Source: Patescibacteria group bacterium (GTDB taxonomy: Bacteria > Patescibacteriota > Patescibacteriia > 2-01-FULL-39-33). Taken from it: a stretch of 64,000 bases of DNA. The translations under genes were made by a program, and so were the position numbers. Positions 293-52,889 of the stretch are shown here, piece by piece. The stretch's first letter is position 1. Every line of letters starts with the position of its first letter. The stretch is taken from NCBI GenBank assembly GCA_041662745.1, contig JBAZRV010000004.1, forward strand, positions 6,315 through 70,314, given 5' to 3'. Under the pieces are notes generated by a model. That model saw nothing but the letters and a program-made list of their open reading frames with translations. It was not told where the DNA came from and ran no database searches.

Positions 293-1066
293 ATGGGTAA
301 TCCCACGGTGAGCCGTACCCTGTCGGTACACAAGGAACACGAAGTATTATTGAAACTGGAAGCCGCCGGCCTCGATGACGATCTGGCCCAAAAAGTCATT
401 GACTCCAAAGACAACGACTTGGCCATGAAAGTCATCCGGCTGATTCAGAACGGCGGATTCGAAGCGACCACGAGCCAGAAACGCGCCCGCGAAATCATGG
501 GCACGAACATGTTCGGCGTCGAGGAAGCTATCCTCCATTTCGGCGTCAATCCCAGCAAAGCGCAACTGGCCGCTCTCTCCGAGATTCCGTTCTCCGAGGC
601 GGTACTCGCTCAATGCAAAGACACGCACGTTTTGGTGGCAATCTTCCCGCTGTCCATCCTGGAGATCCGCGGCAAGGTAAAGCGCGGTCTGTTCTACAGC
701 TACGAGGACTCCTGGTATAACAAACAGTCGTTCGCGAAAGACCGCGGCGAAGTGGGTTGGCAACTCGTGCGCAAAACGCCGGTTGACAACTCAACGGCGA
801 AGAACTGGACGGAACAGCAAGCGTTGCTGGGCAAGGAAGACGAGACGCCGACCGCCCAGGTTCTGGCCTACACCATCATCGGGCATTTCCTGGCCACAGG
901 CGAACGGCTGTTCGAAAAGATCTACGTCCGTACGTCCACTGTGGTTTTGGTCGGCGGCCGCGTCCACCTCGGCTTCTTCGATGCTGCCGGCCTCGGGGTC
1001 TACGGCCGCTGGGCTGACGATCGCCATGGCGCTCTGGCCGTCTCCTCCGCCCGGAAGTCCAACTGA
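293..1066 (+). CDS. DGR target protein A, 257 aa, of unknown fold. Its C-terminal 38 codons are the variable repeat VR1a.
   Basis: Complete ORF whose 3' end (940-1054) aligns with TR1 (2522-2636). Every mismatch falls at a TR adenine. It is a paralog of the 1370-2149 ORF, sharing the REIMGTNMFGVEEA...GWQLVRKTPV core. Confidence 0.75.
   Translation: MGNPTVSRTLSVHKEHEVLLKLEAAGLDDDLAQKVIDSKDNDLAMKVIRLIQNGGFEATTSQKRAREIMGTNMFGVEEAILHFGVNPSKAQLAALSEIPFSEAVLAQCKDTHVLVAIFPLSILEIRGKVKRGLFYSYEDSWYNKQSFAKDRGEVGWQLVRKTPVDNSTAKNWTEQQALLGKEDETPTAQVLAYTIIGHFLATGERLFEKIYVRTSTVVLVGGRVHLGFFDAAGLGVYGRWADDRHGALAVSSARKSN
940..1054 (+). repeat. DGR variable repeat VR1a
   Basis: 115-bp near-copy of TR1. Differences occur only where TR1 has A, for example TR AAC vs VR GGC/CAC/TTC. 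The 3' GC-rich end GGCCGTCTCCTCCGCCCGG is identical in TR1 and both VRs, consistent with an IMH-like element. Confidence 0.8.
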
Positions 1067-1078
1067 ACCTTGAATCTT

Positions 1079-1140
1079 TGAGGGCTTGACCCTCTTGATT
1101 CCTTGAGCCTTCGGCGCGAATTTTTTTCGTCGCCGAAGGC
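1079..1140 (+). promoter_or_regulatory. Hairpin pair downstream of VR1a: GAGGG-CTTGA-CCCTC and GCCTTCGGCG...CGCCGAAGGC. It may be a DGR-associated stem-loop and/or a terminator. The same pair recurs at 2162-2222 after VR1b.
   Basis: Inverted repeats read directly from the sequence. The same structure occurs after both VR-bearing genes. Confidence 0.4.
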
Positions 1141-1369
1141 TCACTTCTTTCCTACTATAACCATTGATAGTTTAATAATATTAGTAATTGTCCCTTAAAA
1201 TAAATGTGATAAAAAAATAGATTGAAATGAGCGTTTTGGATGCCAAAGAATTTTGGTTTCTAAAACGCTCGTCTCATTCCGAGACAAGACGTAACAACGG
1301 GATCGTATTCCCATTTCTAGTCGCCCCAAACAAAAAAAACAAGGGGCTAACAGAAAAGGAGCACATACC

Positions 1370-2149
1370 ATGAAGTGGACAGAAATCCTTGCAGGAGAAT
1401 TGCATGCAGCCGAGCAACGCCTCAGGGTCGCCTTGGGCGACAAGGCCAGCGAAGTTGTCGAGAAAATCAACAGCGATGCCGCTTTTGCGGACTCGGTCGC
1501 CGCGCAAATCATTATGATGGCGGGCGAGGCTGACAAAAGTTCCACCAGCTTGAACCCGCAATGGTTGCGCGCCCGCGAAATCATGGGCACGAATATGTTC
1601 GGCGTCGAAGAAGCCATGAAGCATTTCGGCGTCAATCCCAGCAAAGCACAGCTCGCCGCTCTCGCCGAGATTCCCTTCTCGGAGGCAGTGCTCGAACAGT
1701 GCAAGAACACGCATGTCCTGGTTGCGGTCTTTCCGCTGTCGATTCTCGACATCCGGAGCAAGGCCAATGTCAAGAAGCTGTTCTACGACCAGTCGTGGTA
1801 CAATGGCGAGTCCTTCGCCAAAAGCCGCGGCAAGATCGGCTGGCAACTCGTGCGCAAAACGCCGGTTAGCAACTCAACGTCAAAGAATTGGAGCGAACAG
1901 CAAGCTCTGATCAGTCAAGACGATGAAACGCCGACCGCCCAGGTTCTGGCCTACACCATCATCGGGCATTTCCTGGCCACGGGTGAACGGCTGTTCGAAC
2001 GCATTTACGTCCGTACATCGTCTGTGGGTTCGGGCGGCAGCCGCGTCCCCCTCGGCGACTTCGCTGCTGCCGGCCTCCGGGTCTACGGCAGCTGGGATGA
2101 CCATCGCGATGGCGATCTGGCCGTCTCCTCCGCCCGGAAGTCCAACTGA
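1370..2149 (+). CDS. DGR target protein B, 259 aa, a tandem paralog of target A. Its C-terminal VR1b spans 2023-2137.
   Basis: The core is about 80% identical to ORF 293-1066, with a divergent N-terminal 65 aa. The 3' 115 bp match TR1 with about 16 substitutions, all at TR adenines. Confidence 0.75.
   Translation: MKWTEILAGELHAAEQRLRVALGDKASEVVEKINSDAAFADSVAAQIIMMAGEADKSSTSLNPQWLRAREIMGTNMFGVEEAMKHFGVNPSKAQLAALAEIPFSEAVLEQCKNTHVLVAVFPLSILDIRSKANVKKLFYDQSWYNGESFAKSRGKIGWQLVRKTPVSNSTSKNWSEQQALISQDDETPTAQVLAYTIIGHFLATGERLFERIYVRTSSVGSGGSRVPLGDFAAAGLRVYGSWDDHRDGDLAVSSARKSN
2023..2137 (+). repeat. DGR variable repeat VR1b
   Basis: Same structure as VR1a. All mismatches against TR1 are at A positions: AAC-AAC-AAC in TR1 becomes TAC-GGC-AGC. 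Confidence 0.8.
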
Positions 2150-2521
2150 ACCTTGAATCTTTGAGGGCTTGACCCTCTTGATTCCTTGAGCCTTCGGCGC
2201 GAATTTTTTCGCAATGCCGGAGGCTTATTTTCTTTTTAAACTATTTTTTGCTATAATTATTTTGTTCGCTAATGCAGGCGCGGTTACGGCTTCGCCTCGC
2301 GGACAGCTCATCTTTTTGAGACGTCACCAGAGTATCGCCGTCCACGGATTGCGATAGCGTGTGATAAAAAGATTGAGATGGAACTTCTTGCCCGCTCTTA
2401 GTGGAGGTGATCTTACGCTATCTGCTCCCGAATAAAATACAGGAGAGAAAGGACATAGGCCTGTTTTTTAATAGGCAGTAAACCTTAATTTCCAGTGATC
2501 CTGGCGAGAGCTGGCAAATAA

Positions 2522-2636
2522 TGTGGATTCGGACGGCAACCGCGTCAACCTCGGCAACTTCGATGCTACCGGCCTCAAGGTCAACAACAACTGGGATGAC
2601 AATCGCAATGGCGATCTGGCCGTCTCCTCCGCCCGG
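2522..2636 (+). repeat. DGR template repeat TR1, the 3' remnant of a third copy of the target gene. It is noncoding and asparagine(AAC)-rich in the target reading frame.
   Basis: Translates as DSDGNRVNLGNFDATGLKVNNNWDDNRNGDLAVSSAR, with AAC codons at every position that varies in VR1a and VR1b. The upstream gene body is degraded and no start codon remains. A hairpin AACACCCTCCTG-TTAC-AGGAGGGTGTT follows at 2659-2686. Confidence 0.8.
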
Positions 2637-2700
2637 CACTTCCATCTTTTCTTACTAAAACACCCTCCTGTTACAGGAGGGTGTTTCCATTTATTATGGC

Positions 2701-3348
2701 CTACAATTCCTTAGTTGACTTAATCCAGCCGCCGAGCATTCGGCCGACTTCATCGACATCCTGTTGCAATGTCACGTACTTATTAGCCGCTAAGGATTTA
2801 GTTTCTTTCATCAGCCGCAAGAATATCCTGAGGAAATTCAGCTTTAAGCTGGCTTTTTGCAAAACCGGCAGCTTGTCTGTTTTGGACAGCTGGCTGGCCA
2901 GCAATATGCTTTCCAAAATATCCAACAGGACATTTTCACAGCGCTGCCACAAAGTGTAGCGGTCTTGCTTAGCCACGCTTTTCCTGAGGATATAAAATTG
3001 CTTGTAGAGATCATAGATTTTTTTAAAGATCGGTATGTCAAAATCTTCCATATAATTATGAAAATTTATAAAGATATTTATAATGAGATGATTTCCCTGG
3101 AGAATTTGTTTTCCGCCTGGGATAAGTTCAAGATTGGCAATTTTTGCTGGAGTTGGATTTTCCTGATCAATGCTATAATAATTATTATATGCGATTAAAA
3201 CTAAACGCCCATCATCACCCCTTAATATTTTTAAAAGACCCAACTCTTGGTCAAGAATAATCTGACCTACAAGATTAAATTCAGTTATTTCGAATGATAC
3301 AAATTCATCCATATAATTATAATTAATACCTGTATTGAATATTACCAA
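2701..3348 (-). CDS. avd: Avd-like four-helix-bundle protein (23S rRNA IVS protein family) with an in-frame 99-aa N-terminal extension. The Avd module probably starts at the internal Met (2701-3051).
   Basis: The C-terminal 116 aa (IFKKIYDLYKQFYILRKS...DEVGRMLGGWIKS) resemble the four-helix-bundle/Avd family. It is paralogous to ORF 52348-52869 (NEIGRMLGGWRKR). It lies convergent with and immediately downstream of TR1. Confidence 0.6.
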   Translation of the reverse strand: MVIFNTGINYNYMDEFVSFEITEFNLVGQIILDQELGLLKILRGDDGRLVLIAYNNYYSIDQENPTPAKIANLELIPGGKQILQGNHLIINIFINFHNYMEDFDIPIFKKIYDLYKQFYILRKSVAKQDRYTLWQRCENVLLDILESILLASQLSKTDKLPVLQKASLKLNFLRIFLRLMKETKSLAANKYVTLQQDVDEVGRMLGGWIKSTKEL

Positions 3349-3460
3349 AAAATCGCCATTTAGGCGATTTTATTTAGCTAACAAAATAATATACATATAC
3401 TATTTGAGTCGCCCCACCATCATAGGACGGTGAGTCGGCTCCGATACTTAGTTCTACTAC

Positions 3461-3562
3461 CGGTGTGTTTACAAAAAAATTCGAACCGATTTCACCCCCA
3501 AAAATTGATGAGCGGGCGGATTTCCTCCCCCAACCCCTCCATCCGCCCGCCCTTTCGGATTT
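3461..3562. repeat. Inverted repeat IR-A, left arm of a perfect 102-bp pair. The right arm is 5069-5174.
   Basis: An exact reverse-complement match of about 102 bp (GGTGTGTTTACAAAAAAATTCGAACCGATTTCACCCCCAAAAATTGATGAGCGGGCGGATTTCC...) flanks the HTH and 378-aa genes. Confidence 0.85.
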
Positions 3563-3569
3563 GCGATTT

Positions 3570-4706
3570 TCAGTTTTTCTTTGGCGACAAATTCTTTTTT
3601 TCTAGCATTCTTACCACCTTAAAATCCGTAGTGATTATTGGAATATTACTTGGTATGACATCTAATATTTCTTGTGGTATCTGCTCAATATCTTTGTTGA
3701 TAACAACCGCTACAAAATCTTTCGGTGATATATTACCAATTACTCCCATATCACCCTCACTATTTTCTAATGGCCCTAGAGTATGATGTTTGTTTGGGAC
3801 TTTAAATAAAATTGATAAATCATCCCAAAAGTATTTTTTCATCTCACCGGTTTGTTCATAATCGCTTTTTACTAACTCTGGTGGATAGGTTGAAATCATG
3901 TTGGTTCCAAAAAGTAAATCCGCCATATTCCTAAAGGGGTCATCATATATTTCGAAATCCTCTTTATTTTTAGGCTCCCATCGGCTTCTCCAATTTTCCT
4001 TTTTCAAACGTTCAAATGCAAACTTAGCTAGAGGTGAACTAAAAAAATATGTCTTTATAGACTGATACACCTTATCAGTTGTTTCTTTTTTTCTTTCATC
4101 TCTTATTTCTGGCGTAACCAATAACCAGTCTTGAGCGTAATCTTCTTGTATCGTTTCAATCAAGATATTTGAAAATTCATCGCTGTTTACCATTTCGTCG
4201 TAACTTATGCTATCTAAATTAGCTCCATCGTGAACCCTTTTGTCTAAAAAGATCGACATTGCGCGAATCATCGATTTGCCAAGCTTTCCCCGCTCATGTT
4301 GTACTTCTGGACCATAGCCACCAATAGGAAAATTAACAGCATAACCCTCTTTTTGTAATCGAATTTTCCGATGGCTCAAAATTCCTTGCCCAAAATAACT
4401 TTTTAATTTATTTAAAAGTTCCTCTATTCGCACAATATCTTTTTCATTACGATCTTCAGGCGCTGCATTCAACATCTTAATTAGTCCTCCTACGAATCTA
4501 TAGCCACTGTGCTGAGCAACCTTCCTATCGGAAATTAATTGTTTAATTTCTTCAATTAATATTCTCTCATTTTCTTCTCTTTCATTATTATTTAAATCAG
4601 GACTTTCTCCGCTCATTAGCCCATCAAAACCCGCCTCATTTTCAGTTGGATACTCAAGGCCTTGAATAAAATCTTCTTCTTGTTTTGGTTGCTCGAGTTT
4701 TGGCAT
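3570..4706 (-). CDS. Hypothetical protein, 378 aa, acidic, with no recognisable motifs. It is cargo of the IR-A cassette.
   Basis: Complete ORF directly downstream of the HTH gene, with a 5-bp gap between them. It has no RT or nuclease signature I can recognise. Confidence 0.5.
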   Translation of the reverse strand: MPKLEQPKQEEDFIQGLEYPTENEAGFDGLMSGESPDLNNNEREENERILIEEIKQLISDRKVAQHSGYRFVGGLIKMLNAAPEDRNEKDIVRIEELLNKLKSYFGQGILSHRKIRLQKEGYAVNFPIGGYGPEVQHERGKLGKSMIRAMSIFLDKRVHDGANLDSISYDEMVNSDEFSNILIETIQEDYAQDWLLVTPEIRDERKKETTDKVYQSIKTYFFSSPLAKFAFERLKKENWRSRWEPKNKEDFEIYDDPFRNMADLLFGTNMISTYPPELVKSDYEQTGEMKKYFWDDLSILFKVPNKHHTLGPLENSEGDMGVIGNISPKDFVAVVINKDIEQIPQEILDVIPSNIPIITTDFKVVRMLEKKNLSPKKN

Positions 4707-4711
4707 ATTTG

Positions 4712-4924
4712 TTATTTTATTAAATCATCAACCGTAACCCCTAACCCTTTGGCAATTTTTGCCATAGTTTCAATCGTGGGATTGGGCGTAGCCCCCGATT
4801 CAATTTTAATTATTACATTATAAGCAATATCAGCCCTTTTCGAAAGTCCATCTTGAGAAATACCTAGTTTATCTCGGCATTTTTTAATATTCCTGGCTAT
4901 TGTTGGCAATTCACTTTGTTTCAT
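4712..4924 (-). CDS. XRE-family helix-turn-helix transcriptional regulator, 70 aa
   Basis: ARNIKKCRDKLGISQDGLSKRADIAYNVIIKIESG is a typical HTH_XRE (Cro/C1) motif. It sits upstream of and is co-oriented with the 378-aa ORF. Confidence 0.7.
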   Translation of the reverse strand: MKQSELPTIARNIKKCRDKLGISQDGLSKRADIAYNVIIKIESGATPNPTIETMAKIAKGLGVTVDDLIK

Positions 4925-5068
4925 AGTATAATTATACTAGTATAGTAGTTAAACAAGTTTTACTACTATAACTTTATCAAAATTCATGGATTTTATCAAT
5001 AATTTTTTTAAGCCCGCTTTTGGCCAAAATGAAGTTCGAGCCGATATTTTTTCCAGGTTCTTTGGCGG

Positions 5069-5174
5069 TTTTCAATCCGAAAGGGCGGGCGGATGGAGGG
5101 GTTGGGGGAGGAAATCCGCCCGCTCATCAATTTTTGGGGGTGAAATCGGTTCGAATTTTTTTGTAAACACACCG
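5069..5174. repeat. Inverted repeat IR-A, right arm
   Basis: Reverse complement of 3461-3562. It abuts and overlaps by 3 nt the left arm of IR-B. Confidence 0.85.
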
Positions 5175-5258
5175 CCAATCGGTATTTGCCCAATTTTCGG
5201 GCAGAAGTTTCAGAATTCGCCAACCAGTTTTGGCCTGAAATTCAAATTTTTTGGCTTC
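5172..5258. repeat. Inverted repeat IR-B, left arm of a perfect 87-bp pair. The right arm is 6683-6769.
   Basis: CCGCCAATCGGTATTTGCCCAATTTTCGGGCAGAAGTTTCAGAATTCGCC...GGCTTC matches the reverse complement exactly at 6683-6769. Confidence 0.85.
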
Positions 5259-5320
5259 TGATTCTTAAAGAATTGCCAAAAGCGGGCTTTAAAAAAATTA
5301 TTAGTTTTAATCTTAAATAT

Positions 5321-6823
5321 ATGAAGTACTTTATTTACGCTCGCAAGTCCACTGACAGCGAAGAACGGCAGATCTTAAGCATTGAATCCCAGATTGCTGA
5401 GTTGTATGAATTTGCCGCCAAAGAAAAACTGGAAATCGCCGCTTCGCTGTGCGAAGCGAAAACCGCCAAAGAACCTGGCCGAACTGTGTTCGGAGAAATG
5501 CTGGATCGGATTTGCGCCGGCGAAGCCGGAGGAATTTTGGCTTGGCACCCGGATCGGCTGGCTAGAAATTCAATTGACGGAGGCAAAATCATTTATCTTT
5601 TGGACACAGGCCAGATCAAAGACCTAAAGTTTCCCACATTTTGGTTTGACAGCACACCGCAAGGAAAATTCATGATGAACATTGCCTTTGGCCAAAGCAA
5701 GTATTACATCGACAATTTAAGCGAGAATATACGGCGAGGCCATCGGGCTAAACTAAGAAAAGGGATTTGGCCAGTCTTTGCCCCGCTTGGCTATCTAAAT
5801 AATCACAGGACCAAAGGCATAGAATTAGACAGGGAAAGGGCGCCTTTGGTCAAAAAATGCTTTGAGCTATACGCTACGGGCGAATATACCCTCAAAGCCC
5901 TAAGAGATGTAATCAGCCAAGCGGGGCTAAGAAGCTACCGAGGCAATGTTCTGGCCGTGGCCTGTGTCCAAAGAATGCTCAAGAACTCGATCTACTATGG
6001 CCTATTCAAATTTAACGACGAATTGCATGAGGGAACGCACGAGCCGATTATTTCCAAGAAACTTTTTGATGAAGCTCAACAAGTAATGAGTAATCGAGGC
6101 AAGAAGAAACGAAAGCGAAAACACGAATTTGCTTTTTCTGGATTAATGAAATGTGGGGTCTGCGATTGCCTCATAACGGCGGAAAAACAAAAAGGCCATA
6201 ATTACTATCGTTGCACCAAGAAAAAACAAACCTGCGACGAAAAATGTCTGCGCGAAGAATTACTTGTTGAACAGATGAAAGAGATAATTCAAAAAGTTTC
6301 TTTGCCTGACGATTGGGCAAAAAATATGCTCGCCGAGATTGAGTTGGAACGAGAACAAGCAAGAAAAGACGGCATGATTTTTGGGCAAAAACTGGAAGTG
6401 AGAAAAACAGAAATCGAGCAAACCATGGAACGACTGCTTGATTTGTTTATTGAAGGCAAGCATATCGAGCCAGAGGAATATCACGCTAAAAAACAAAAAC
6501 TTCTCATCGAGAAGTGTGAGCTTAATCAACAAATCAAGGATTTTGCCCAAAAAGGAAATAATTGGCTCGAACCCATGAAAGAAATGATTTTAGCCAGCAG
6601 CCAAGCCAAAATTCTATTGTCGCGAGGCGACAATTCGCAAATCCGAGCATTTCTAAAAAATATCGGCTCGAACTTCATTTTGGAAGCCAAAAAATTTGAA
6701 TTTCAGGCCAAAACTGGTTGGCGAATTCTGAAACTTCTGCCCGAAAATTGGGCAAATACCGATTGGCGGAGAGAGAGGGATTCGAACCCTCGGTACGCCC
6801 ATAATAGACGTACAACGGTTTAG
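5321..6823 (+). CDS. Large serine recombinase: resolvase/invertase catalytic domain, recombinase domain and zinc ribbon. The C-terminus is encoded within IR-B and the tRNA-Ser 3' end.
   Basis: N-terminal YARKSTDSEERQILSIESQ...HPDRLARN is a serine-recombinase catalytic motif. CGVCDC...YYRCTKKK is a Zn ribbon. The ORF reads through the IR-B right arm into the tRNA. Confidence 0.8.
   Translation: MKYFIYARKSTDSEERQILSIESQIAELYEFAAKEKLEIAASLCEAKTAKEPGRTVFGEMLDRICAGEAGGILAWHPDRLARNSIDGGKIIYLLDTGQIKDLKFPTFWFDSTPQGKFMMNIAFGQSKYYIDNLSENIRRGHRAKLRKGIWPVFAPLGYLNNHRTKGIELDRERAPLVKKCFELYATGEYTLKALRDVISQAGLRSYRGNVLAVACVQRMLKNSIYYGLFKFNDELHEGTHEPIISKKLFDEAQQVMSNRGKKKRKRKHEFAFSGLMKCGVCDCLITAEKQKGHNYYRCTKKKQTCDEKCLREELLVEQMKEIIQKVSLPDDWAKNMLAEIELEREQARKDGMIFGQKLEVRKTEIEQTMERLLDLFIEGKHIEPEEYHAKKQKLLIEKCELNQQIKDFAQKGNNWLEPMKEMILASSQAKILLSRGDNSQIRAFLKNIGSNFILEAKKFEFQAKTGWRILKLLPENWANTDWRRERDSNPRYAHNRRTTV
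6683..6769. repeat. Inverted repeat IR-B, right arm. It overlaps the 3' end of tRNA-Ser by 6 nt.
   Basis: Exact reverse complement of 5172-5258. Confidence 0.85.
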
Positions 6824-6858
6824 CAAACCGCCGCCTTCAGCCACTCGGCCATCTCTCC
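6764..6858 (-). tRNA. tRNA-Ser (anticodon GCU) with a long variable arm
   Basis: The reverse complement reads GGAGAGATGGCCGAGTGGCTGAAGGCGGCGGTTTGCTAAACCG...GGGTTCGAATCCCTCTCTCTCCGCCA. The anticodon loop is TT-GCT-AA, and CCA is encoded. Confidence 0.8.
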
Positions 6859-6917
6859 AAACAACACGACTTGCTTATTCTATCATAAAACCATACTTAT
6901 TGTAAAGCCCTCCCGAA

Positions 6918-7577
6918 CTACGCAGCTAAGACAAAACCGCTAATTTCAGCAAATCCTGCGGTTTTTAATGTGTCGGCGCATTCACGTAAGGTTGAGCCGG
7001 TAGTCAAAACATCATCAACTAAGATTATCCTTTTACCCCAGTTATCGCTTAAACAATCCAAATTGACTTGAAATGCCCCAATTACATTCTGCTCCCTGTT
7101 TTCTTGCGTCTGGCCGACTTGCGGCTTATGATAAACGACTCGCCGAAGCAAATCCGGACAAACCAATAAAGAAGAATTGGTAGCGGCTAAAGCCCTGGCG
7201 ATTACTTCCGCCTGATTGAACCCCCGCCAGAGATACCGACGGCGATGCAAAGGCACCGGGACCAAAACGGCCGGAAGATCATCTGTTTGTACTGATATTT
7301 TTTCTTTCTTTATTAACTGATGAACAGTGCGGGACAAGTCAAAGGCAAAATTATATTTTAAAGCGGCAATAATCCTGTCAATAAGCGGCTGTTCATAATC
7401 AAATAAAGCCTTAACCTTGATAAAATTAGCGCCAACAGGCAGAATCAATTGCCTTTCCCTGCTTGGCAATGTTGCTAAGCATTTTTCACACAGCCACTCA
7501 CCTTCCTGATGGCAATTCAAACAATAACGCGGGAACAGCAAGTCAACGATTTGCTCTTTAAAACCGCTTATTGCCAT
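6918..7577 (-). CDS. comFC: ComF family protein (ComFC, phosphoribosyltransferase-like)
   Basis: An N-terminal CxxC...CxxC zinc finger is followed by the PRTase signature ILVDDVLTTGST. Confidence 0.75.
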   Translation of the reverse strand: MAISGFKEQIVDLLFPRYCLNCHQEGEWLCEKCLATLPSRERQLILPVGANFIKVKALFDYEQPLIDRIIAALKYNFAFDLSRTVHQLIKKEKISVQTDDLPAVLVPVPLHRRRYLWRGFNQAEVIARALAATNSSLLVCPDLLRRVVYHKPQVGQTQENREQNVIGAFQVNLDCLSDNWGKRIILVDDVLTTGSTLRECADTLKTAGFAEISGFVLAA

Positions 7578-8181: not shown

Positions 8182-10086
8182 CTAATTGTTCTGCGATAGC
8201 ATTGCCTCAGCAAATTCCTTCTTGGCCGCTTCAATTTCCAACAACTGCCGCGGATCGGAAGTAATCAACTGATCTTCAGAATATGAGGCCACCACTTTAA
8301 CGGCCACGTGTTTGGCGCCGGCAAAGAAAATACCTTCGCCCACCGCGCTTTCCAACAACAAATATTTTTCTCCTTCAGTCAATAAAAAGGTCTTTTGCAC
8401 CAAATCAATGGCCGCCGGAGACTGCTTAAGCAATAATTGAAGGGCGGAATTATTGACAATGGCCTGGCCATAAGGAGAGGTCAAAAAATCATTAACATCC
8501 TGAGTGATGGTCGTAACGCCCAAATAATATTTGCGGCAACGTTTGACCAGAGCAAAAATGAATTTGGCTGAATCTTCGCGCTGCATCAGCCACCAAGCTT
8601 CATCTACCACTAAAATCCTCTTTTTCATTTCGGAACGGACAATATTCCAAATATAATTGACAATAGTATAGATTGCCAGCGGCTTAAGCTCATCTTCCAA
8701 ATCACGGACGGAAAAAACCACCAGCTGATTATTTAATTGGACGTTTGTCGGATGATTAAGCAGGCCGGAAAAAGTGCCTTCAGTATATTTTTTAAGGCGC
8801 AAAACAATACTGCTGCCGCCCTCCATACCTTCCAAAATATCCTGAAAATCCTGCATGATAGGCGGTTCCACCGAACGCAAATCAGCATCGGGAGTGATGT
8901 CTTTCTTGGCATAAGTTTCCAACAATGCGCGATCAATAATGGAATCCTCCTCCGGCGTAACATCGCCGATCATTAATCGCACTAACCCCTTAACGGTAAT
9001 AACGGCATTGCGGATAATATCTGCCGGTTTGGCGTCTTCACCGATAGCCCGAGGCAAGTCAAAGGGATTGATTTTGCCCTCAGAATTAAGCGAAATATCG
9101 ATGTAAGTGCCGCCAACGGCTTCACACAGGTGATTATACTCCCGTTCCGGATCAATAATGATCACATCGGTTCCAAACATCATGCTGCGCAAAACTTCCA
9201 ATTTGATCGTATATGACTTGCCGGCGCCGGAAGTGGCAAACACCACGGAATTGGCATTCTGCAAGGAGAAACGATCAAACAGGATTAAACTGTTATTGTG
9301 GCGGTTAATGCCATACAAGATGCCGTGATCGGAAGTCAAATCCGAGGATACGAACGGAAAAGAAGACGCGGCCGGCGAAGAGTTTAGATTGATATAGACT
9401 TGAAGTTCATCATACGCCATGGGCAAGGTAGAATTAAATCCTTGCTCAGCCTGATAAAACACTCGGCGAGAAAAAATCAGAGTGCCGCCGAAAAAGTTCT
9501 CAATGCGTTCCGAAGTTTTGTCCAATTCCTCCAATGTCTTGGCATATAAAGTCACATACAAAGAAAATTGAAAAAAATGCTCAATACCTTGAGTCAGATC
9601 ATCGCGCAATTTCTCCATATCGCGCAAAGCGGTTTCAGACAAAGGATCGCGGGGCGCTCCCTTTTCCGCCGCGCCGATAATCGTCGCTTCCAACACGCCG
9701 ACTTTTTTCTTTAATTGCTTCAAAATGACCGCGGCTTTAACCGGAAAAAAATACATGGCCATGTCCGCCTCAATATCCATATTGATAATCGGCGCAAACC
9801 AGCCGACGGCGATATAGCGAGGATATTCAAAAACAAAAATCGTCCGAATATAAAGCTCGCCCAACCTGATATGATCGGAATTAACCTCCAAGGCGGCCGG
9901 AGCAATCAAATCCCGGACAGAAACGACGCCGCGCCGATAAATTCTCTCCTCCTCCAACACTTCGCGCGCCGTTTGCAACTCCTTAACTTCCGCTTGTTTC
10001 TTCTGCTGTTGCGTTGGCGGCGGCGGCGGAGCATAACCGACTGAAGCCGGGGTTGTTTGCTTATTGATATCTTCTGGAGTAAACAT
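8182..10086 (-). CDS. virB4: VirB4/TrbE-family T4SS ATPase, C-terminal ATPase portion of a split gene
   Basis: Walker A VFATSGAGKSYT and Walker B ILVVDEAWWL are present, at a size and arrangement typical of VirB4. Confidence 0.75.
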   Translation of the reverse strand: MFTPEDINKQTTPASVGYAPPPPPTQQQKKQAEVKELQTAREVLEEERIYRRGVVSVRDLIAPAALEVNSDHIRLGELYIRTIFVFEYPRYIAVGWFAPIINMDIEADMAMYFFPVKAAVILKQLKKKVGVLEATIIGAAEKGAPRDPLSETALRDMEKLRDDLTQGIEHFFQFSLYVTLYAKTLEELDKTSERIENFFGGTLIFSRRVFYQAEQGFNSTLPMAYDELQVYINLNSSPAASSFPFVSSDLTSDHGILYGINRHNNSLILFDRFSLQNANSVVFATSGAGKSYTIKLEVLRSMMFGTDVIIIDPEREYNHLCEAVGGTYIDISLNSEGKINPFDLPRAIGEDAKPADIIRNAVITVKGLVRLMIGDVTPEEDSIIDRALLETYAKKDITPDADLRSVEPPIMQDFQDILEGMEGGSSIVLRLKKYTEGTFSGLLNHPTNVQLNNQLVVFSVRDLEDELKPLAIYTIVNYIWNIVRSEMKKRILVVDEAWWLMQREDSAKFIFALVKRCRKYYLGVTTITQDVNDFLTSPYGQAIVNNSALQLLLKQSPAAIDLVQKTFLLTEGEKYLLLESAVGEGIFFAGAKHVAVKVVASYSEDQLITSDPRQLLEIEAAKKEFAEAMLSQNN

Positions 10087-16490: not shown

Positions 16491-19400
16491 TTAGTATCCG
16501 CAGTTGCCATAACGGTTGCAGAGACGAAAATTCAAGGACGGCGAAACATTCACCTGGGCCGCCTTATAAGGACGGGACGCATCTTCTTCGGTATTCAAGA
16601 AAGTCGGCGACTGGTCTTCTCCTCCCGCATACAGGGTCACATCGTACAAGCTCGCCTCAATCGGACTGCCGGCTTGCGCTGAATTGGTTACCACTCTTAA
16701 AACCACTCGATCGCCGATTCCCACTTTATCAGCCGGACCATCACAACTTTGATTCTGACAAACCTTAAAATAAACATCGCCGTCCGCGCCACAGGCATCC
16801 AAATAAGCCTTCCAATCGCTCGGATCAGCGCCAAATAATTGTTGCAACCAAGTCGGCTGTGTCTTATAAATATTCAACTTGATCGGACTAACCACGGGAA
16901 TTGACGCGGCATCAGCCGGTTTGACCGCTGATGTTGCCGGACAACTATTTGAACCGGAACCGTAAGAATCCTTAAAACACGGCACTAAGCGGAAAATGTC
17001 GCCGTAACGCAATTGCTTATCACTCTCGGCGTCATTAGGCGCATAAACCAAATCAAGAAAATACTCAATGCTACTGCTAACGGCATAGCCGGCAAAAGTG
17101 CTGGCATCAGCATTAAAATTAAAATTGCCCTTGCTTTCGCCCCGCTCATCATTGTATTCCCCTTCTTCTCCGGTTCCGGGAGCTCCGCCGCAACCGCCAC
17201 CCACCGTGTTTATCGCCATAAACGCCTTCCAGTCATAACTGTCATGGGCCAGCGTAATCAGACTGCCTTGGCCCAAAGGACAATCAATATCATCATCCAA
17301 TGACTTGGTTTCCGGACAAACGCCATCAGCGTAATCAATGGGAGCAACATCGGCCACGACATTGCCACAATCATCCGGACTGTAATTATCAGTATTGGGA
17401 TCAATGGCTTGTTCGCCGATATCGCAATAACCGTCGCCTATCTCTCGACAGCGGCGCCAACCGCCGGTATAAGTGGCGCAACATGTTTTCTGAGTGGAAT
17501 CAGTGGGGTCAATATTAAGATTGACCTCGTTTTCCGGCAACCAATAACAAGTGGCCGAGCAACAGGGGTTGCCACTGGAGCATTGTTGGCCCAAAGCCGA
17601 GCTGTAACTGGCCGGTTTGCATTCGGCCAAAGCATCCTGCTGTTCCGCATCATAAGTATCCCGCCTTAAGACAATCAAATCCTTAATCGTTATGGAATTA
17701 ACCGAAGCCCAATTATCCCGTACCGTTAATTTAATCGGCACGTGGAAAGCAGCGGGATTGGAAGTTGATCTTACCGGTTCTTGGCAAGCGCCTTTGGTCA
17801 AGTCGTCATTGTATTCTTCAACTGTTTCCGTGGTGCCATCGCCCAAAGGCAAGATGCCGACTTTTGTCTCGCATTCCCGTAAATTCTTATTGGCTAAGCT
17901 GTCATAGTTATAAAAATGATACAGATTAAAAGCGTTAGAGGAAGTGGGGCGGCTAGCCAGAGACAAGCCGGCGTAAGATGATACGTTGCCATCGCCCCAA
18001 TCAATATCATAAGAACGAATAGGCACCTGATCCGGATCAATCTTGGAATTAAAGCTTACTTTAACCGCGCCGATACTGTTAACAATAGTGGGGTTGACCT
18101 GGGCTAAAGTGAATTCCGGCCTAACCAAGCAGAATGACAAATAAGTATTGGCGGGACGGGAGTTATTGGGACAATACAACGTCGGCAAACTCCAAACCGA
18201 GTTATTAGAGCTGATGGCGCCGGAAATATCAGTATAATGCCCTATCAAGGGATCGCTGGATTTATCCGCCTGCCATTGCCATAAACTGTAAGAACGCCCG
18301 AATAATTGCAACAAGTCCGGCTTGCTGACGGAGAAATTGTCAACATAGTATAGGGAATTATCTGATTTCTGACCGGCGCGCGCTTGGTAGGGTGGCGCAC
18401 TGCCGCCGGGGAATTCATAAAAAATCGGTTGATTACCGCCGGAGTCGGGACGAGTATCCCATTCATTGGGGTATTGGCCGTTTTCCGGCGCCACCGTAGA
18501 GCCGAAAGGTTTGTAATCGGTAGCGTAATTGTAGCCGACGGCCGCATAAATGCGGCGATAAATCAGCTTTTTATCCCTCAAAATGCCGATTGCTCCGAAA
18601 TTCCTATCATTGACGCAAAAATATTTATAATTAATCCGACAATCATTTATGGCAATAGAGGGGGTATCTTTGGCAAAACTATGAACTTGAAAATAATTAT
18701 TATCCGCTGATTCTCCGATGGGACGAGAGTTATAAGCAATCTCGCAGTTCAGGGCATTAGCCTGATTAAGATAAGCGGTGCGTTGTCTTCCCTCCAAGGA
18801 TATACCTTCAGCGCAATATAATTTGCGCGTCGGATCATCGGGATCGTTGACTCCCTGACCATTATCAATGCCAATAAAATTCTGGCATAAATTCAAGGGA
18901 TAAAAACCTAATAAAGCGCCATCAGCATCATAGAGGCGACGGCTTTCAGCCAAACAATAAGCGGAACTGTAGAAACAGCCATCAGAAAACAACTCGGCAT
19001 TGCTTGGCGTAACAATGCCCACACCGGAAGGAATAGCATCTCCGGAAATTGAACTGTCTTTAACGCAATCTTTGCCCAAATAATCCAAATATTGCGAACC
19101 GGACGATAAACGACTGGCCCAAGCTTTGTTCTCATTGCCGGAATTAACCACTTGAACCAACTTGTAGCAATACTCCACCACCTGTTTGCCGGCAAAATTA
19201 CCCACAACGGCTATACCGCCCATTTTATCGCCCATGCCGGCCGGCTTATTGAAATCCAAGAACTTGGCAAACCCCAGAACATCTCCGGTTACTGCGGGAT
19301 TGGGGTCGGTCAGATCCTTGCCGAACTCCGAATCTTCATCAGTAATAATCCTTAAGCCGAAAGTGGAAATTCCCAAGTCTACACCGGCCGCCTGGATAAG

Positions 19401-22400
19401 CATGCCAGCCAAATTGCCCAAAACTCCTCCGGAAGTGTCAAACTTCTTAGCGGTATGCCAAGGCAGTTCAACATGCAAGACAATATTAACCGGAACAAAA
19501 CTCAATAGCTGTCCGTAACCGGCGACAGCCACCGCCCCCCAACCGCCCCAAGAATCTTCATCAGCCAAGTTAAGCGAATTGGGAGCAAAAACTATGTCCA
19601 GCAAATTGCCCAGACTGCCGAAAATAGAATTGAAAAATTGACTAATGCCTGACCAAGTATTGGTCCAGAAACTGGAAGTTTGTCCTTCACAATCTTCAGT
19701 TGAACCCCTGCAACCTCCATAAAGGTCATTCAAAGATTGATTTTGCTGAGAAATCGTTTGCGCCACTCCGACTGCTCCGGCTGAAGCGCCGCTGTCAACA
19801 AACACTTTGGCGCATTTATTGGTGCCGGGATTAGAGCAGTGGACTGAGTCTTCACAATTCGCGATACCGCCGGTACAAGAACACGGCTCAGCCGTTGTCT
19901 CGCAAAAATAAGTATAATCGCTGATCGGCTTGGCGTACTTTTCGGCTAAGTCTGCAGTAATACAATTATTATTGGAAGAGAAAGCTTCTGTGGAGTTAAC
20001 GCAATTGGCAGTATTAACGACGCTCTGACAAGTGCTATTGGCATTGTCTTCCGGATTATCGCACGAGCAAGGCTTTAATCCTCCGCCAGATGAGTCATTA
20101 AGCGTGGCTAAAACGGAATATTCGCAAACCCTGCCACTGGGATTGCTTTGCACCCAGGATTGCACTTCCTCTTGAGCCGGAGTGGTCACGGAGCTTGTGT
20201 CCGAAACGGTAATTAACCCGTTGCCGGCCGGAACATAACAAATAGGCAAAGGAATGATGCCTAACGGTTTGGCGCAAACTAAATTCTTCCACATGCCGAC
20301 TGACAGGGCTCCGCCAAACAGGGTGTGACTGGCCGTATCGCCGATAGCGATAAAAATGCCGTCAAATTGGAATTTATAAATAAACGGATAACGGAAGAGC
20401 GGCGACCAAGTCGGACTGATTCTAAACGAGGTAGCTTTGGTTTGTTTGGCATTAGTGTCAAATTTCAACGCCTCCATGCCGGAATCATTCACGCCTTCGC
20501 CGAACAAGCCGAAATTACTCGTGTATTGCGACACGTCAAGAACCATAGTTCTCTTTTCCAAGCAATAATACAAAGGATAGCGCTCGCTGTAATAACCGGA
20601 AAAATCGCTTAAAGTCTCACCGCGAATGGAATCAACCGGCCACCATTGCAAACACTGCTGATTATTGGCCGGGTCCGGCGTCAAACAATAGCCGTATTGG
20701 CCATAAAAATAATTATTACCGTCATTATACTTGCAAGCCGGAGCATTCAGGCTGGGATAAACGCGACAAGTGCGATCAACATAGCCATTGGCGCTGGATT
20801 TAAGCAACGGCTTAAGATTGACGTTATCCCACAAGGTATAACCGCCGAGTTTGGAGTTATCTATGCCTTTGCTGCCGTCGGGATTCATATTGAATAAGGC
20901 GAGTTGCACTCCGGAAACATTGTCTCCCGTACGGAAATGCACTATTACCTGCCTCCAGGGCAAGCCGGTAGGAATCTGCATTATCTCGCCTTTGACCCAG
21001 TCGCCTTCATAAACCCCGCCATCAACAATGGCTAAGCCGGGACGCGGCTGACTCTTGGAATTAAGAAAGCGCAAACGCAATTCCGCATAAGGCAAGCGAC
21101 CGCCGGAACCCGGACCTTGTAAATCCTTGGTATGAACCCAGGCGGACAAAAAATATTCCTGATTGGGCAGTATATCAACCGACTCGGAAATAACGCCCCA
21201 ACCCGAATTAACTTTTAAATAACCTACGCCATCTTTGGCCTTGGCGCCGTCACGGCTGATATTGACATAGCTTGATTGCCAATTCCTGTAGACGATATCA
21301 GGATTGCCGCTGGCGCAATCAGAATTGCTGGCGCAATAATAAACGGCCAAACGCCAGCCCAACGGCTGAGTCGTAGCGCCGAAAGTCTCTTCAAAATTAC
21401 CATTAACCACATTAGACGACTGGCCGACTTGCGTCATGGCATCAAAAGAATAATAGCCAACGCGTGAAAAACCGGATTTATTGGCATCCAACGAGGGAGA
21501 ATAGTCATCGTTGCTAACAGCATCATTAGTCAGATAATTATTGCAAATACCGTTATCGCCCAAAGAATTGCAAGCGCTGACCTCCAAGCAAGAATCCTGA
21601 TCGCTGAAAAAATACGGAGCTAAAGTGGATGACTGCCCCTCTTCTTTCTTCTCAAAAGTAGAGCAAGTCAGCCAATTGGCGCAGGCGCGGTTGGGTTGCG
21701 ATTTCAAAATAACATTAGCGTCTTTGGGTTTGCCTTCAGCGGTCGCGGCTGTCGGCGGAACCGAGCGGGATAAACCGTTAATGCCTTGCGGATAATTATT
21801 ATCCCGAGTCAAACGGCTGGAAAAAGCCAACGAGGTGGTGGCGCTATTAATCAGATTGCTGTAATCAAGCTGACTGCGATCATTGAATAAAACACAGCCT
21901 TTATGATAATCAACTTGACCGTTGCAATCGCCGCCGCTAACCTTGGAATTCAAAATATAAGAAACGCTGGCCAAGCCCACTTTATCCCTGACTAAATCTA
22001 TCGGTGATCCGTCTTTGGTCTTGAAAGCCACGCGACAAGTCAATGATTTGGGGTTATCCACGGCTAAATAAAGATAATGGCCAAAATTATCGGAGAGATT
22101 ATTACTTACGTTTTGGACATCGCTGCAAATTATATCGCCGACTTGCAGATTGTCGGACAGGACATACAAAATATTTTTCTTAATAGACACATCTGCGCAG
22201 ACATCCTTGCCCTCACAGCGTTGCGGGATAAGATTGGACGCTAAATTTTCTAATGGATCAATATATTCGCTGCAACCGGATTGTTCGGCTGAACAGGACC
22301 CGACCCAGCCGCTGTAAGCCGGATCAGACGATTCTTGCAGAGTCACTGAGTTGATCGGGCCGAGCGGTTGCAATTTGTCCGTCGCCGCCTTATAGCTTAA

Positions 22401-28109: not shown

Positions 28110-28116
28110 AATTATT

Positions 28117-29163
28117 TTAAGTTGAAGTTGCTGTTGAAGAAACTATGCGCTTTTCTAATTGGCTGATGAACACCTGTTTCAATTCATCATCGCCAATGGT
28201 GTCCAAAATAACGCTATCACCGCCGGATTTAATCAGGATCTGCCTGATTTGCGCGCCGGACAGCTGTTTAAAATCAGCCATAGTGGTAACGCCGAATGAC
28301 TCCAAATTAACATTGGCCCAACCGCTCGTAGCGGTAGCTAAAGCATCAACGGTCAAATCTGTTTGGTTAACTAAAGCATCATCAACGCCCAAATCTCCGC
28401 CAATGGCGTAAGAAGAAAAAACTGTCGGATCAATCAGGCCGTATTGCTGCAATTGTTGCGCCATAGTCGGATTATTCTGCAAATATTGAGCAAAAGTCTG
28501 CATTAATTCATCATCGGTGGTATCGGCCAGATCCTGATCGCTAATGCCGCTGCTTTTTAGCATCTGTCTGATAATATCCGGAGTCAAAGCCGAATAATTG
28601 TTGGTCTGGCCGGCAGTTGCCGTTAGGGGCGCCGAATCAGTGGAACCGGATGGCAAGACGCCGGTATCGGAAGGGCTGGCAGTAGAATCCATGGTAGGCA
28701 ATCCCGTACATTTTTGGCCTTGCGGACAGTTCGGATCAGTCCCCCTATCCACCTCAATTTTATCGTTAAGGCCGTCGGAATCGCTGTCTTTAAGATAGGG
28801 ACTGGTATGATAAACGCTTAATTCAAGATTATCAGCCAGGCCATCGGCGTCGGTATCGCGGGTCATCATGTCCCTTATTTGCGCTTGTTGCAAAGCTAAC
28901 CTCTCCGCGCGGGATTTATTACCGGCCTTAACTATATCTTGAAAAGGATTTTGGCTGGCGAAAAAAAACTGCCAAAAACCAAAAACAAGGGCCATTAACC
29001 CGATTGCCGCGATTAAAACTGTATGCATTTTTTCCTTGCCGGTAAGCGATTTACCTAAGCTTGAGTCATTGCCTGAAGCGGGGGTATCGCCCACTTCCAG
29101 ATTCTTCAAGTAATCAGCTTCTTTATCTTCACTTATCGGCCGGGGTTGTTCACTACCTTCCAT
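28117..29163 (-). CDS. Membrane-anchored protein with thrombospondin-type-3-like Ca-binding repeats, 348 aa
   Basis: A TM helix (LIAAIGLMALVFGFWQFFF) is followed by the DTDADGLAD and DSDSDGLND repeats. Confidence 0.45.
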   Translation of the reverse strand: MEGSEQPRPISEDKEADYLKNLEVGDTPASGNDSSLGKSLTGKEKMHTVLIAAIGLMALVFGFWQFFFASQNPFQDIVKAGNKSRAERLALQQAQIRDMMTRDTDADGLADNLELSVYHTSPYLKDSDSDGLNDKIEVDRGTDPNCPQGQKCTGLPTMDSTASPSDTGVLPSGSTDSAPLTATAGQTNNYSALTPDIIRQMLKSSGISDQDLADTTDDELMQTFAQYLQNNPTMAQQLQQYGLIDPTVFSSYAIGGDLGVDDALVNQTDLTVDALATATSGWANVNLESFGVTTMADFKQLSGAQIRQILIKSGGDSVILDTIGDDELKQVFISQLEKRIVSSTATST

Positions 29164-50865: not shown

Positions 50866-51402
50866 TCATTTGTGTTTATTTTTATACTCCAACTTACCTT
50901 TCAAAACATTCAAAAAAATCAAGATATTATTTGCCGGAGAACTTAAGCGATCCAAAAGACAAGAATAATTATTTTGATTCGGAATTAACACTCTCTTGAG
51001 TTTTGCGTTATTGATCAGATATTCTACCAAACAATAAAAATCACCATCACCGGAGACAATAATGGCCTTGTCATAATTAGAGTGTTCAATCATAGTATGC
51101 AATACCAATTCGGCATCTACATTACCCTTAACCGTACCATCGGCTAATTCCAGCGTCGGTTTAAACACGCAAATATAGCCATACTCCTGTAATTTTGTAT
51201 ACATCGCTTGATTGCCGGGTTTAAAGCCAATGAACAGGAAGGCCTTTTCAATGCCATATTTATCCTTAAGATAAACCCTGAATCTTCTATAATCAAGTTG
51301 CCAGCCGGAATAAATTTTCCGGTCTTTTTTATAAATGTCTTTTGACAAGCTTTGATATAAATTATTGCTGTCAATAAAAGCGTAATTTTTTTCTTGCGGC
51401 AT
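50866..51402 (-). CDS. NYN (LabA-like) domain protein
   Basis: YAFIDSNNLY...IIVSGDGDF, an NYN/PIN-like core. Confidence 0.55.
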   Translation of the reverse strand: MPQEKNYAFIDSNNLYQSLSKDIYKKDRKIYSGWQLDYRRFRVYLKDKYGIEKAFLFIGFKPGNQAMYTKLQEYGYICVFKPTLELADGTVKGNVDAELVLHTMIEHSNYDKAIIVSGDGDFYCLVEYLINNAKLKRVLIPNQNNYSCLLDRLSSPANNILIFLNVLKGKLEYKNKHK

Positions 51403-51422
51403 ATTATTTTATATAGATAATC

Positions 51423-52869: not shown

Positions 52870-52889
52870 CCGGGCGGAAGAATGGAGAG

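Follow-up and report, generated by a model that had tools for sequence, protein, structure and literature searches.

The stretch of DNA analyzed here, referred to as the window, comprises 64,000 nucleotides of a Patescibacteria group bacterium (contig JBAZRV010000004.1, positions 6,315 to 70,314 of the forward strand), and all coordinates without a locus number are those of the window. At 3461–6769 it carries an element of 3,309 bp, for which we favor, with a probability of about 0.6, the following reading: a 3.3-kb integrative element of the large serine recombinase (LSR) type sits at the gene for tRNA-Ser(GCT), its small helix-turn-helix (HTH) protein serves as its regulator, and its 378-aa payload is composed of an acidic leader and a swappable body that are exchanged as a cassette, with the motif character of the leader and the effector role of the protein being guesses.

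A sequence-only reading of the region 3570–4924 had described a two-gene unit carried by an invertible or mobile cassette. Both genes are indeed present on the minus strand, namely the gene of an XRE/HTH_3 regulator of 70 aa (4712–4924), which by Pfam consists of the HTH domain alone, and, after a gap of 5 nt (4707–4711), the open reading frame (ORF) of the 378-aa cargo protein (3570–4706), whose residues 1–38 (about 4593–4706) form the leader. As had been stated, the cargo protein is acidic, with a pI of 5.09 overall and of 4.05 for residues 1–45. It has no Pfam, NCBIfam or PHROG family. The proposal that the cargo was moved horizontally is well supported by the logic of the attL, attR and attP sites at the 3′ end of tRNA-Ser, by a 92% identical relative at another isoacceptor, and by the GC content of the cargo gene, which is 34.9% as compared with 39.4% for the element and 44.7% for the window. 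What had been overlooked were the tRNA-Ser(GCT) gene, a second repeat of 87 nt, inverted pieces of the recombinase gene at both ends of the cargo segment, and the separately conserved N-terminal module of the cargo protein.

Attachment sites and recombinase

The ends of the element are the points at which identity to a related element of Ca. Buchananbacteria (L007) and to a locus from the same metagenome as the window (L009) stops; on one side they coincide with the outer limit of arm A, where CGG at 3461–3463 forms the junction between element and chromosome, and on the other with that of arm B′. Arm A (3461–3561), on the attL side, is a perfect inverted copy of arm A′ (5074–5174). The perfect inverted repeat reported earlier around the two genes is real, with a length of 101 nt instead of 102, and it can be extended at neither end. 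Its chance expectation is effectively zero, and its 39-nt core (the hairpin core of arm A at 3512–3550 on the minus strand, with a twin at 5085–5123 on the plus strand) occurs in two exact copies in the window and gave no match in 100 shuffles. The second perfect inverted repeat, of 87 nt, consists of arm B (5172–5258) and arm B′ (6683–6769, on the attR side) and brackets the LSR gene. Arms A′ and B abut each other, overlapping in the core CCG at 5172–5174, and together form an intact attP-like site (5074–5258, plus strand), which points in the opposite direction to the split copies that end the element. The 101-nt and 87-nt repeats bracket the two halves of the element because this internal inverted copy duplicates the split outer ones.

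In the orientation of the tRNA and with a slash marking the junction, attR reads tRNA...CTCTCTCCG/CCAATCGG, or in a longer form tRNA...CCCTCTCTCTCCG/CCAATCGGTATTTG; attL reads GTAAACACACCG/GTAGTAGAAC; and the internal attP-like junction, located inverted in the middle of the element, reads GTAAACACACCG/CCAATCGG, with the longer form GTAAACACACCG/CCAATCGGTATTTG. From these we infer an attB of the form ...CTCTCTCCG/GTAGTAGAAC (longer form ...CCCTCTCTCTCCG/GTAGTAGAACTAAG). In the window as well as in L007, attL, attR and the internal attP all share the core CCG, the junctions having also been read in L009, and this core corresponds to the last two bases of the acceptor stem plus the discriminator of tRNA-Ser. 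The CCA following the core is supplied by arm B′ of the element, so that the 3′ end of the tRNA (6764–6858, minus strand; identified by ARAGORN, by Rfam with 60 bits, and by the junction sequences) is restored. As in tRNA-integrating islands, the element borders on a tRNA gene at one side, contains the gene of its recombinase, and rebuilds the end of the tRNA.

LSRs use a short core, and the recombination of attP with attB through a 2-nt crossover gives rise to hybrid attL and attR sites. The short CCG core at the end of the tRNA, taken together with the pattern of three junctions, argues for integration by a crossover within a 2–3-nt core, and by these junctions 3461–6769 is shown to be a presumptive LSR element integrated at the tRNA-Ser 3′ end and carrying one extra inverted attP. 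In the model proposed here, the LSR would insert a circular form of the element by an attP × attB crossover in CCG; the circle would carry two inverted copies of attP, and integration could proceed through either of them. Homologous recombination between the arms, which is plausible given their concerted evolution (described below), would keep the arms identical and could also flip the halves, with no dedicated invertase switch being involved.

The LSR gene (5321–6823, plus strand) encodes 500 aa, its ORF continuing through arm B′ into the tRNA gene. That a recombinase lies next to the cargo genes, as the earlier reading had it, is confirmed by Pfam matches above the cut-offs to Resolvase (PF00239, 2e-16), Recombinase (PF07508, 3e-14) and Zn_ribbon_recom (PF13408, 6e-7), that is, by the resolvase, recombinase and zinc-ribbon domains which, in a protein of about 450–600 aa, characterize the LSR class. 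Residues 1–460 match the integrase family phrog_95 (7e-73), the protein is 24–28% identical to phage serine integrases, and its N-terminus YARKSTDSEERQ contains a Ser, which we take to be the expected Ser of the catalytic motif. The ORF crosses attR, and its last 17–18 codons are tRNA sequence, differing between the window and the Buchananbacteria contig (L001), in whose public gene calls the LSR gene is missing (6028–7447). In the excised or flipped form the C-terminus is predicted to carry the tail CVYKKIRTDFTPKN (...NTDWRCVYKKIRTDFTPKN); looking up this alternative end (...NTDWRCVYKKIRTDFTPKN) in a protein collection was uninformative, as neither the observed nor the predicted form of the LSR is present in that collection.

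Related elements and cassette exchange

The same layout is found, with 92% identity over 2.2 kb, on contig JAUSEE010000001 of a Ca. Buchananbacteria metagenome-assembled genome (MAG), designated L001/L007. The element there contains the two pairs of repeats as well as the internal attP, encodes an intact LSR of 503 aa, and sits at tRNA-Ser(GGA) in a chromosomal flank that differs from that of the window. Identity between the two elements amounts to 98–100% in the attachment and intergenic sequences, about 92% in the LSR, about 90% in the HTH, the protein of which is nearly identical and differs in only a few residues, and about 80% in the leader, and the bodies of the two cargo proteins are unrelated. 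Homology ends after cargo codon 42 and restarts 15 nt before the stop codon, beyond which the 32-nt block E′ (see below) plus arm A are at 98% identity and above. Arms A and B contain one difference each, and within each genome both copies of the arm share the same base; this co-variation argues for concerted evolution and hence for recombination between the arms. The occurrence of the same layout at tRNA-Ser(GGA) in another lineage indicates that the architecture is real, that it is transmitted as such, and that the element has moved between lineages of the Candidate Phyla Radiation (CPR) and between tRNA-Ser isoacceptors.

A related strain (L022, an ENA contig with 96% identity) also carries the element. 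The assemblies informative for orientation are the window contig, a JGI contig (L008/L023) and this ENA contig, and all of them show the same one. L009 contains two directly oriented units of E′ and A′, an arrangement suggestive of a tandem array.

Leader and body together make up a cassette, delimited on the 5′ side by the leader and on the 3′ side by E′ and the hairpin, which is exchanged between elements. E′ (3563–3594, minus strand) is 94% identical to the recombinase codons at 5408–5439, overlaps the cargo stop codon, and is read in a frame other than that of the LSR, thereby supplying this stop codon. No gene follows the cargo in the window, where E′ is succeeded directly by arm A. E′ also lies 3′ of the leader genes in L007, L003, L005 and L009, and an E′-like stretch was recognized by eye in L016. 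The hairpin is made up of GCGGGCGGAT, a 19-nt G-rich mirror-repeat loop and ATCCGCCCGC, with a 12-bp stem in the fold; across diverged loci it has a GC stem of 10–12 bp, the loop GGAGGGGT(T/G)(G/T)GGGGAGGA and two Shine-Dalgarno-like GGAGG runs, and one compensatory stem change was found among related copies. Related hairpins are positioned 3′ of leader genes in L005 (3059–3099) and L016 (1378–1418), and in L018 an inverted pair (148–187 and 1967–2001) brackets a leader gene plus a gene of 244 aa. The hairpin may act as a terminator, a protein site or a G-quadruplex. Neither the repeat arms nor the hairpin matched an Rfam family at gathering or E-value thresholds, the arm did not fold as RNA with significantly greater stability than shuffled sequences (z = −1.4), and the hairpin pattern had no match in viral contigs.

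At five loci the leader gene lies downstream of a tRNA gene and in the same orientation, directly following it in L003 and L021 (tRNA-Ser) and in L016 (tRNA-Gln), while the LSR segment intervenes in the window and in L007. The gene upstream of the leader gene encodes an HTH protein in the window, L007 and L005, a GIY-YIG protein in L003, an NYN protein in L009, and a TrmB-like regulator in L010.

The repeat map reveals, in addition, three contiguous inverted snippets of the recombinase locus at 4998–5073, of which 4998–5024 is an inverted copy of the LSR upstream region (5275–5302), 5024–5052 of the LSR codons at 6655–6683, and 5053–5073 of those at 5458–5478, the last being 20 nt instead of 21 in L007. 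All of them, and E′ as well, are kept in L007. If the cargo segment were flipped, arm A would be followed by the D′-C′ piece (GAAAACCGCC...) in place of E. Snippets and E′ resemble what might be left of a second copy of the LSR that would have been opened at a small palindrome (5440–5457). A one-step inversion between any pair of short inverted LSR fragments was tested, and no model of this kind covers all the pieces. Inversion between the two 28-nt copies of the upstream region would turn a tandem “autonomous plus satellite” array, like that of L009, into the observed inverted attP; this model was also rejected, as it leaves the 50-nt D′-C′ piece and E′ over.

A promoter-like site facing the LSR on the plus strand (TTGGCA-18-TATAAT, 4903–4932) agrees at 11 of 12 positions. 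If the LSR were transcribed from this site, its 5′ untranslated region would show complementarity to the sequence upstream of the gene, to two stretches within the coding sequence, and to the 3′ end of the gene (arm B versus B′); no covariation backs such pairing of the LSR 5′ untranslated region.

The regulator and the leader-tagged protein

The XRE/HTH_3 membership of the regulator follows from a match of residues 13–68 to HTH_3 (PF01381, 8e-14), which scores 51.9 bits where 23 are required. Generic matches to repressors, antitoxins and C-proteins were obtained as well (HipB-like 6e-8, PADLOC control protein 4e-9, capH 3e-8, and the NCBIfam model RstR), all of them far below the curated cut-offs. 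Self-complementary palindromes at 4924–4970, TAGTATAATTATACTA, TATACTAGTATA and TATAGTAGT-N12-ACTACTATA, abut the HTH start codon and overlap promoter-like hexamers on both strands; they are the same in L007 except for one base in the N12 spacer, and they are candidate operators of the HTH protein. The promoter-like site on the minus strand (4952–4925) is weaker than that on the plus strand, and because of its spacing the HTH mRNA is probably leaderless. The HTH protein would, via the palindromes at its start codon, repress its own operon and possibly the LSR. We read it as the element's own regulator, and not as a cognate antitoxin, because nearly the same HTH protein occurs together with bodies that are unrelated, and beside other leader genes an HTH gene is missing. 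As in phage repressors and the controller (C) proteins of restriction-modification systems, a small HTH_3 protein is encoded directly upstream of a gene with which it is probably co-transcribed, and palindromes overlap its own promoter-like region; unlike in restriction-modification controller systems, there is no methyltransferase or endonuclease, the HTH matches are generic and below cut-offs, and the operators are putative.

The leader has the consensus MPEKFxQPKxxQEDFTQGLDYPTENEAGFDGLMSGENPD, with 15 invariant residues and the core pattern EDFxQGL[DE]YPxExEAGF[DE]GLxSG. It is carried by the window protein, P0002–P0004, P0013, P0015, P0018–P0021 and an ORF of L010, and among these eleven leader proteins there are eight unrelated types of body; hhalign aligns them in the leader only, and no domain was matched in any of them. 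Over the 27-codon core of the leader, compared at ten loci, the mean pS is 0.61 and the mean pN 0.14, from which it follows that the leader is conserved as a peptide and not as a DNA site, a pattern indicative of purifying selection. AlphaFold2 (AF2) predicts residues 1–37 to be disordered (pLDDT below 50). The leader had no match in viral contigs, and none in GenBank phages by tblastn. A conserved N-terminal module joined to many unrelated C-terminal domains is also what defines polymorphic toxins and effectors.

In the model proposed here, the leader would be a short linear motif recognized by a conserved host machine for export, targeting or turnover, and the bodies would be accessory effector proteins; our best guess for the 378-aa protein is that it is such a tagged, exchangeable effector. 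A bolder version, which we consider doubtful, holds that the leader is a new Patescibacteria targeting signal (for export, host delivery or regulated turnover), marking polymorphic effectors that move as cassettes, from leader to hairpin, on minimal LSR elements homing to tRNA 3′ ends, and that the two-attP circle integrates or flips either way. If true, the leader would be a sequence handle for the effector repertoire of these episymbiotic bacteria.

Double-glycine leaders, as recognized by C39 peptidase domains, are amphipathic, end in GG, GA or GS, and carry E at position −8, with positions −4, −7, −12 and −15 being hydrophobic. The leader described here was, on inspection of the alignment, rejected as one of them: its last two residues are SG, which places S at −2, positions −8 and −12 are occupied by Gly and Glu, respectively, and it includes Pro20 and is disordered according to the prediction. 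L009 encodes, at 3218–3730, a stand-alone C39 peptidase-domain protein (PF03412, 1.2e-15), about 1.1 kb beyond its element-related end and after two ArsP-type permease genes; given the poor fit of the leader to the double-glycine consensus, this proximity is probably coincidental.

As for the body, a word-index protein search with the cargo protein retrieved four relatives only, three of which share just the first ~45 residues, and when the alignment of either the body or the leader served as the query, such searches found almost nothing. An exhaustive search of 1.84 billion representatives at E ≤ 0.001 yielded 19 proteins, of which about 12 match the body and seven the N-terminus alone. The relatives of the body (P0005–P0012, P0014, P0016 and P0017) show 24–35% identity in the alignment, and in the rest of this family the N-termini differ from that of the window protein. 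Conserved motifs are [CA]xH, GIxSxxK, NLISSxPP, ILFKxP...T, DLGIAN, FxAVVI and IPxNLPxIT..FxVIRMP, and the conserved polar residues H66, S111, K114, Q136, N269, S272, T309 and R366 suggest that the body may be an enzyme. The AF2 model of the body that was built from the 12-sequence alignment (pLDDT 79.8, pTM 0.78), and for which a model from the single cargo sequence (pLDDT 43) was discarded, shows a helical domain and a small alpha/beta domain over residues of about 40–370. No match to the cargo protein was detected by tblastn in GenBank phages or PLSDB plasmids, and none in viral contigs to the sub-alignment of the body C-terminus.

Two identities were considered for the cargo protein and not adopted. 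Local Foldseek matches to the ADP-ribosyltransferases DarT (7omu) and CteC (8ux2) have probabilities of 0.07–0.11 over 53–60 columns and do not amount to evidence, and a PADLOC match to HerA (7.7e-4, 16.4 bits), confined to 85 helical residues (172–257), is weak and partial and was not credited. In the alternative bodies of L007 (P0002, 6001–6969), P0019 and P0021, a motif resembling the phosphoribosyl pyrophosphate-binding loop of phosphoribosyltransferases was noticed (ILVFDEMGFGMS; LIVTEFVHAGGTL), which Pfam did not confirm.

The body homolog P0011 (367 aa) is encoded in L012 (5615–8901), together with an unannotated 134-aa gene, between the genes of an ABC-2 permease and an ABC ATPase and beside glycosyltransferase genes, a setting that would fit either the insertion of both genes into an operon for polysaccharide export or a genuine envelope function. 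The other body homologs lie on contigs of 1–2 kb.

Alternative explanations, related systems and neighboring loci

Several points weigh against the reading favored here. Recombinase activity, the position of the crossover within CCG, and binding by the HTH protein have all been read from sequence; an empty attB site and an excised circle, at which no search was aimed, were not seen; the flipped isomer was not seen either, three of three informative assemblies having one orientation; and the simple two-attP model leaves the inverted LSR fragments at both ends of the cargo segment unaccounted for. Promoter-like sites are not enriched in the region (10 found, as against 6.7 ± 2.7 in shuffles), so that the promoters and operators named above are presumptive. 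The body matched nothing in Pfam, NCBIfam, PADLOC or PHROGs, which makes “effector” a guess, nor did its profile match any PDB sequence, and the Foldseek comparison that the sequence-only reading had proposed returned no match for the AF2 model in the PDB (best E about 1) or in BFVD (nothing below E = 0.15); a new fold is not claimed on this basis. By reading of its sequence, the leader matches no Sec, Tat or pilin signal, and its link to secretion or to any partner is a guess; the known leader proteins number only about 11 and are mostly on short contigs. Finally, the distant body homolog P0011 belongs to a non-mobile cell-envelope gene cluster.

Among the other explanations is an invertible switch, which the earlier reading had also considered. 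Here the recombinase, or homologous recombination, would flip the HTH-cargo segment of 1.5 kb bounded by the 101-nt repeats, the LSR segment bounded by the 87-nt repeats, or both, toggling expression, e.g. by tRNA read-through that is sense or antisense to the LSR. Two pairs of perfect inverted repeats do bracket the two halves beside a recombinase gene and evolve in concert between two genomes, and in L018, where an inverted hairpin pair encloses the leader gene and the 244-aa gene, the relation of the G-rich loop to the gene is opposite to that in the window. These repeats are, however, fully explained as halves of a duplicated attP that was split by integration, and a flip would change little, since both operons appear to have their promoter-like sites and operators within the flipping segments and only the last 14–18 codons of the LSR would be altered. 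LSRs recombine attP with attB, or attL with attR in the presence of a directionality factor; to our knowledge, canonical LSRs do not recombine attP with attL or attR, and known invertases are small serine or tyrosine enzymes that act on short sites. The single orientation found in all three informative contigs points the same way, although this is weak evidence, coming from contigs and not from reads. Control by orientation is thus unlikely. Hardly any credence can be given to the idea that the perfect repeats are chimeric or fold-back joins of metagenome assembly: long perfect inverted repeats in MAG contigs are sometimes artefacts, and several of the short contigs end within repeats, but the same layout, with its own co-varying substitutions, recurs in a different MAG of a different lineage, the left junction is reproduced in the JGI and ENA assemblies, and the junctions follow the attL/attR/attP logic with a common CCG core.

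With regard to function, the sequence-only reading had suggested a defense, abortive-infection or addiction module, in which the HTH protein would be an antitoxin or controller and the 378-aa protein a toxic effector that stabilizes the element or kills infected cells. The tight coupling of the two genes, 5 nt apart on a mobile element, would fit this, as would the generic antitoxin and C-protein matches of the HTH protein, the small nuclease-type genes that precede other leader genes (GIY-YIG in L003, NYN in L009), and the reverse-transcriptase-like and nuclease-like ORFs which a reading of translations places beside the leader gene of L010. Yet those HTH matches all fall far below the curated cut-offs, and the 378-aa protein has no toxin or defense family match in Pfam or NCBIfam and no credible one in PADLOC, where HerA at 16.4 bits is the sole match. 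The HTH protein does not appear to be a cognate neutralizer of the body, because a nearly identical one is paired with an unrelated body in L007, so that antitoxin and toxin do not co-vary, and because other leader genes have no HTH gene at all; at 70 aa it also leaves no room for a toxin-binding domain. No positive evidence therefore emerged for such a module, and we regard it as improbable. The body might otherwise be an ordinary enzyme, i.e. a cell-envelope or metabolic Patescibacteria protein picked up by the element, with the leader playing no special role. The different N-termini of the body relatives and the conserved polar residues hinting at an enzyme are compatible with this, as is P0011 with its ABC-2 permease, ABC ATPase and glycosyltransferase neighbors; a clear housekeeping homolog outside mobile contexts is what the earlier reading had named as speaking against its own proposal, and P0011, at 28–31% identity, is one in a weak sense and a distant one. 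It is also the only homolog with an informative non-mobile context, and a family so small and patchy (19 proteins, about 12 of them with the body) does not show a housekeeping pattern. The lack of a role is hard to square with the strong purifying selection acting on the leader and with its occurrence on eight bodies that are unrelated, and the capture of an ordinary enzyme seems quite unlikely to us.

The favored reading, that of an LSR element with a leader-tagged, exchangeable cargo, has partial counterparts among known systems. Among 937 tycheposons, a minority of 27 rely on an LSR, and tandem repeat junctions have been reported for tycheposons (Hackl et al., bioRxiv 10.1101/2020.12.28.424599). 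As in the element described here, a site-specific recombinase places a small cargo element at a tRNA gene, the cargo is modular, and the host has a small genome without classical transfer machinery; their tandem junctions are similar to the direct E′-A′ repeat of L009. The present element differs in being much smaller (3.3 kb), in lacking replication genes, in its internal inverted second attP and single leader-tagged cargo protein, and in its host, Patescibacteria as opposed to marine cyanobacteria, its mobility being deduced from the DNA itself. With phiC31, Bxb1, SCCmec Ccr and XisF the LSR shares the combination of Resolvase, Recombinase and zinc-ribbon domains, a very short attP/attB core, and a gene that abuts the attachment site; unlike those systems, it has the extreme 3′ end of a tRNA as its target and an inverted duplicate of attP, no directionality factor was identified, and it falls well short of the cut-offs that NCBIfam sets for XisF and Ccr.

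The internal proteins of phage T4 share a capsid-targeting sequence, and polymorphic toxin and effector families pair a common module with varied bodies. The cargo protein resembles both in having a short N-terminal module that occurs on many unrelated bodies, on mobile DNA, and with whole-body replacement between near-identical backbones. It differs from them in that it has no known trafficking or toxin domain and no adjacent immunity gene, in that its leader is only about 38 residues long and disordered, and in that neither cargo nor leader has a phage or viral-contig match. The predicted circle, with two unique segments and two identical inverted repeats of about 188 bp that undergo concerted evolution, is reminiscent of the yeast 2-micron plasmid and of plastid inverted repeats; unlike in those replicons, the repeats are attachment sites of an integrase and not FRT-type sites, there is no replication function, and a single orientation was seen. 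Integron gene cassettes go with the tyrosine integrase IntI and an attI site, and they end in attC; assignment to them was rejected, the recombinase being a serine enzyme, and the 3′ module of E′ and hairpin offers no more than a loose analogy.

The genomes of Patescibacteria (CPR) are tiny, these bacteria depend on other microbes to live on, and few of their mobile elements or effectors have been characterized; in the literature on CPR mobile elements and polymorphic toxins no account of this element or its leader was found. The analysis documents a minimal LSR element of 3.3 kb that has moved between CPR lineages and tRNA-Ser isoacceptors, with an unusual layout of inverted duplicate attP sites, and adds a confidently modeled protein family without a structural match in the PDB or BFVD. 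The N-terminal tag on unrelated proteins is a testable entry to the question of how CPR address their accessory proteins; the value of these results lies in hypotheses and sequence handles and not in a demonstrated mechanism.

Directly to the left of the element, at 293–3348, lies the target locus of a diversity-generating retroelement (DGR), in which two paralogous genes (293–1066 and 1370–2149, plus strand) have 3′ ends (940–1054 and 2023–2137) that match a non-coding template repeat (2522–2636), with differences almost only at template adenines. A bAvd-like gene (2701–3348, minus strand; PF22296, 1.4e-17) belongs to this locus, and no reverse transcriptase is found beside it. A second, complete DGR is located 48 kb away, at 51423–55238, and may serve the locus at 0.3–3.3 kb in trans. 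It has a reverse transcriptase gene (about 51423–52565, minus strand; RVT_1 4.5e-24, motif IRYADD), which is adjoined by an NYN-domain gene (50869–51408), a stretch that matches the 3′ end of the bAvd gene (52802–52830, inside the ORF 52348–52869), a template repeat (52892–53020), and a variable repeat (53354–53482) at the 3′ end of a 631-aa gene (53343–55238, minus strand); every difference falls at a template A of the minus strand. On the right-hand side of the tRNA gene, the window encodes a ComF-like phosphoribosyltransferase (6918–7577) and a VirB4/TraG-type P-loop ATPase (8182–10086), followed by very large ORFs of 1082 aa and 3883 aa (16494–28142) and a tmRNA (59652–60038).

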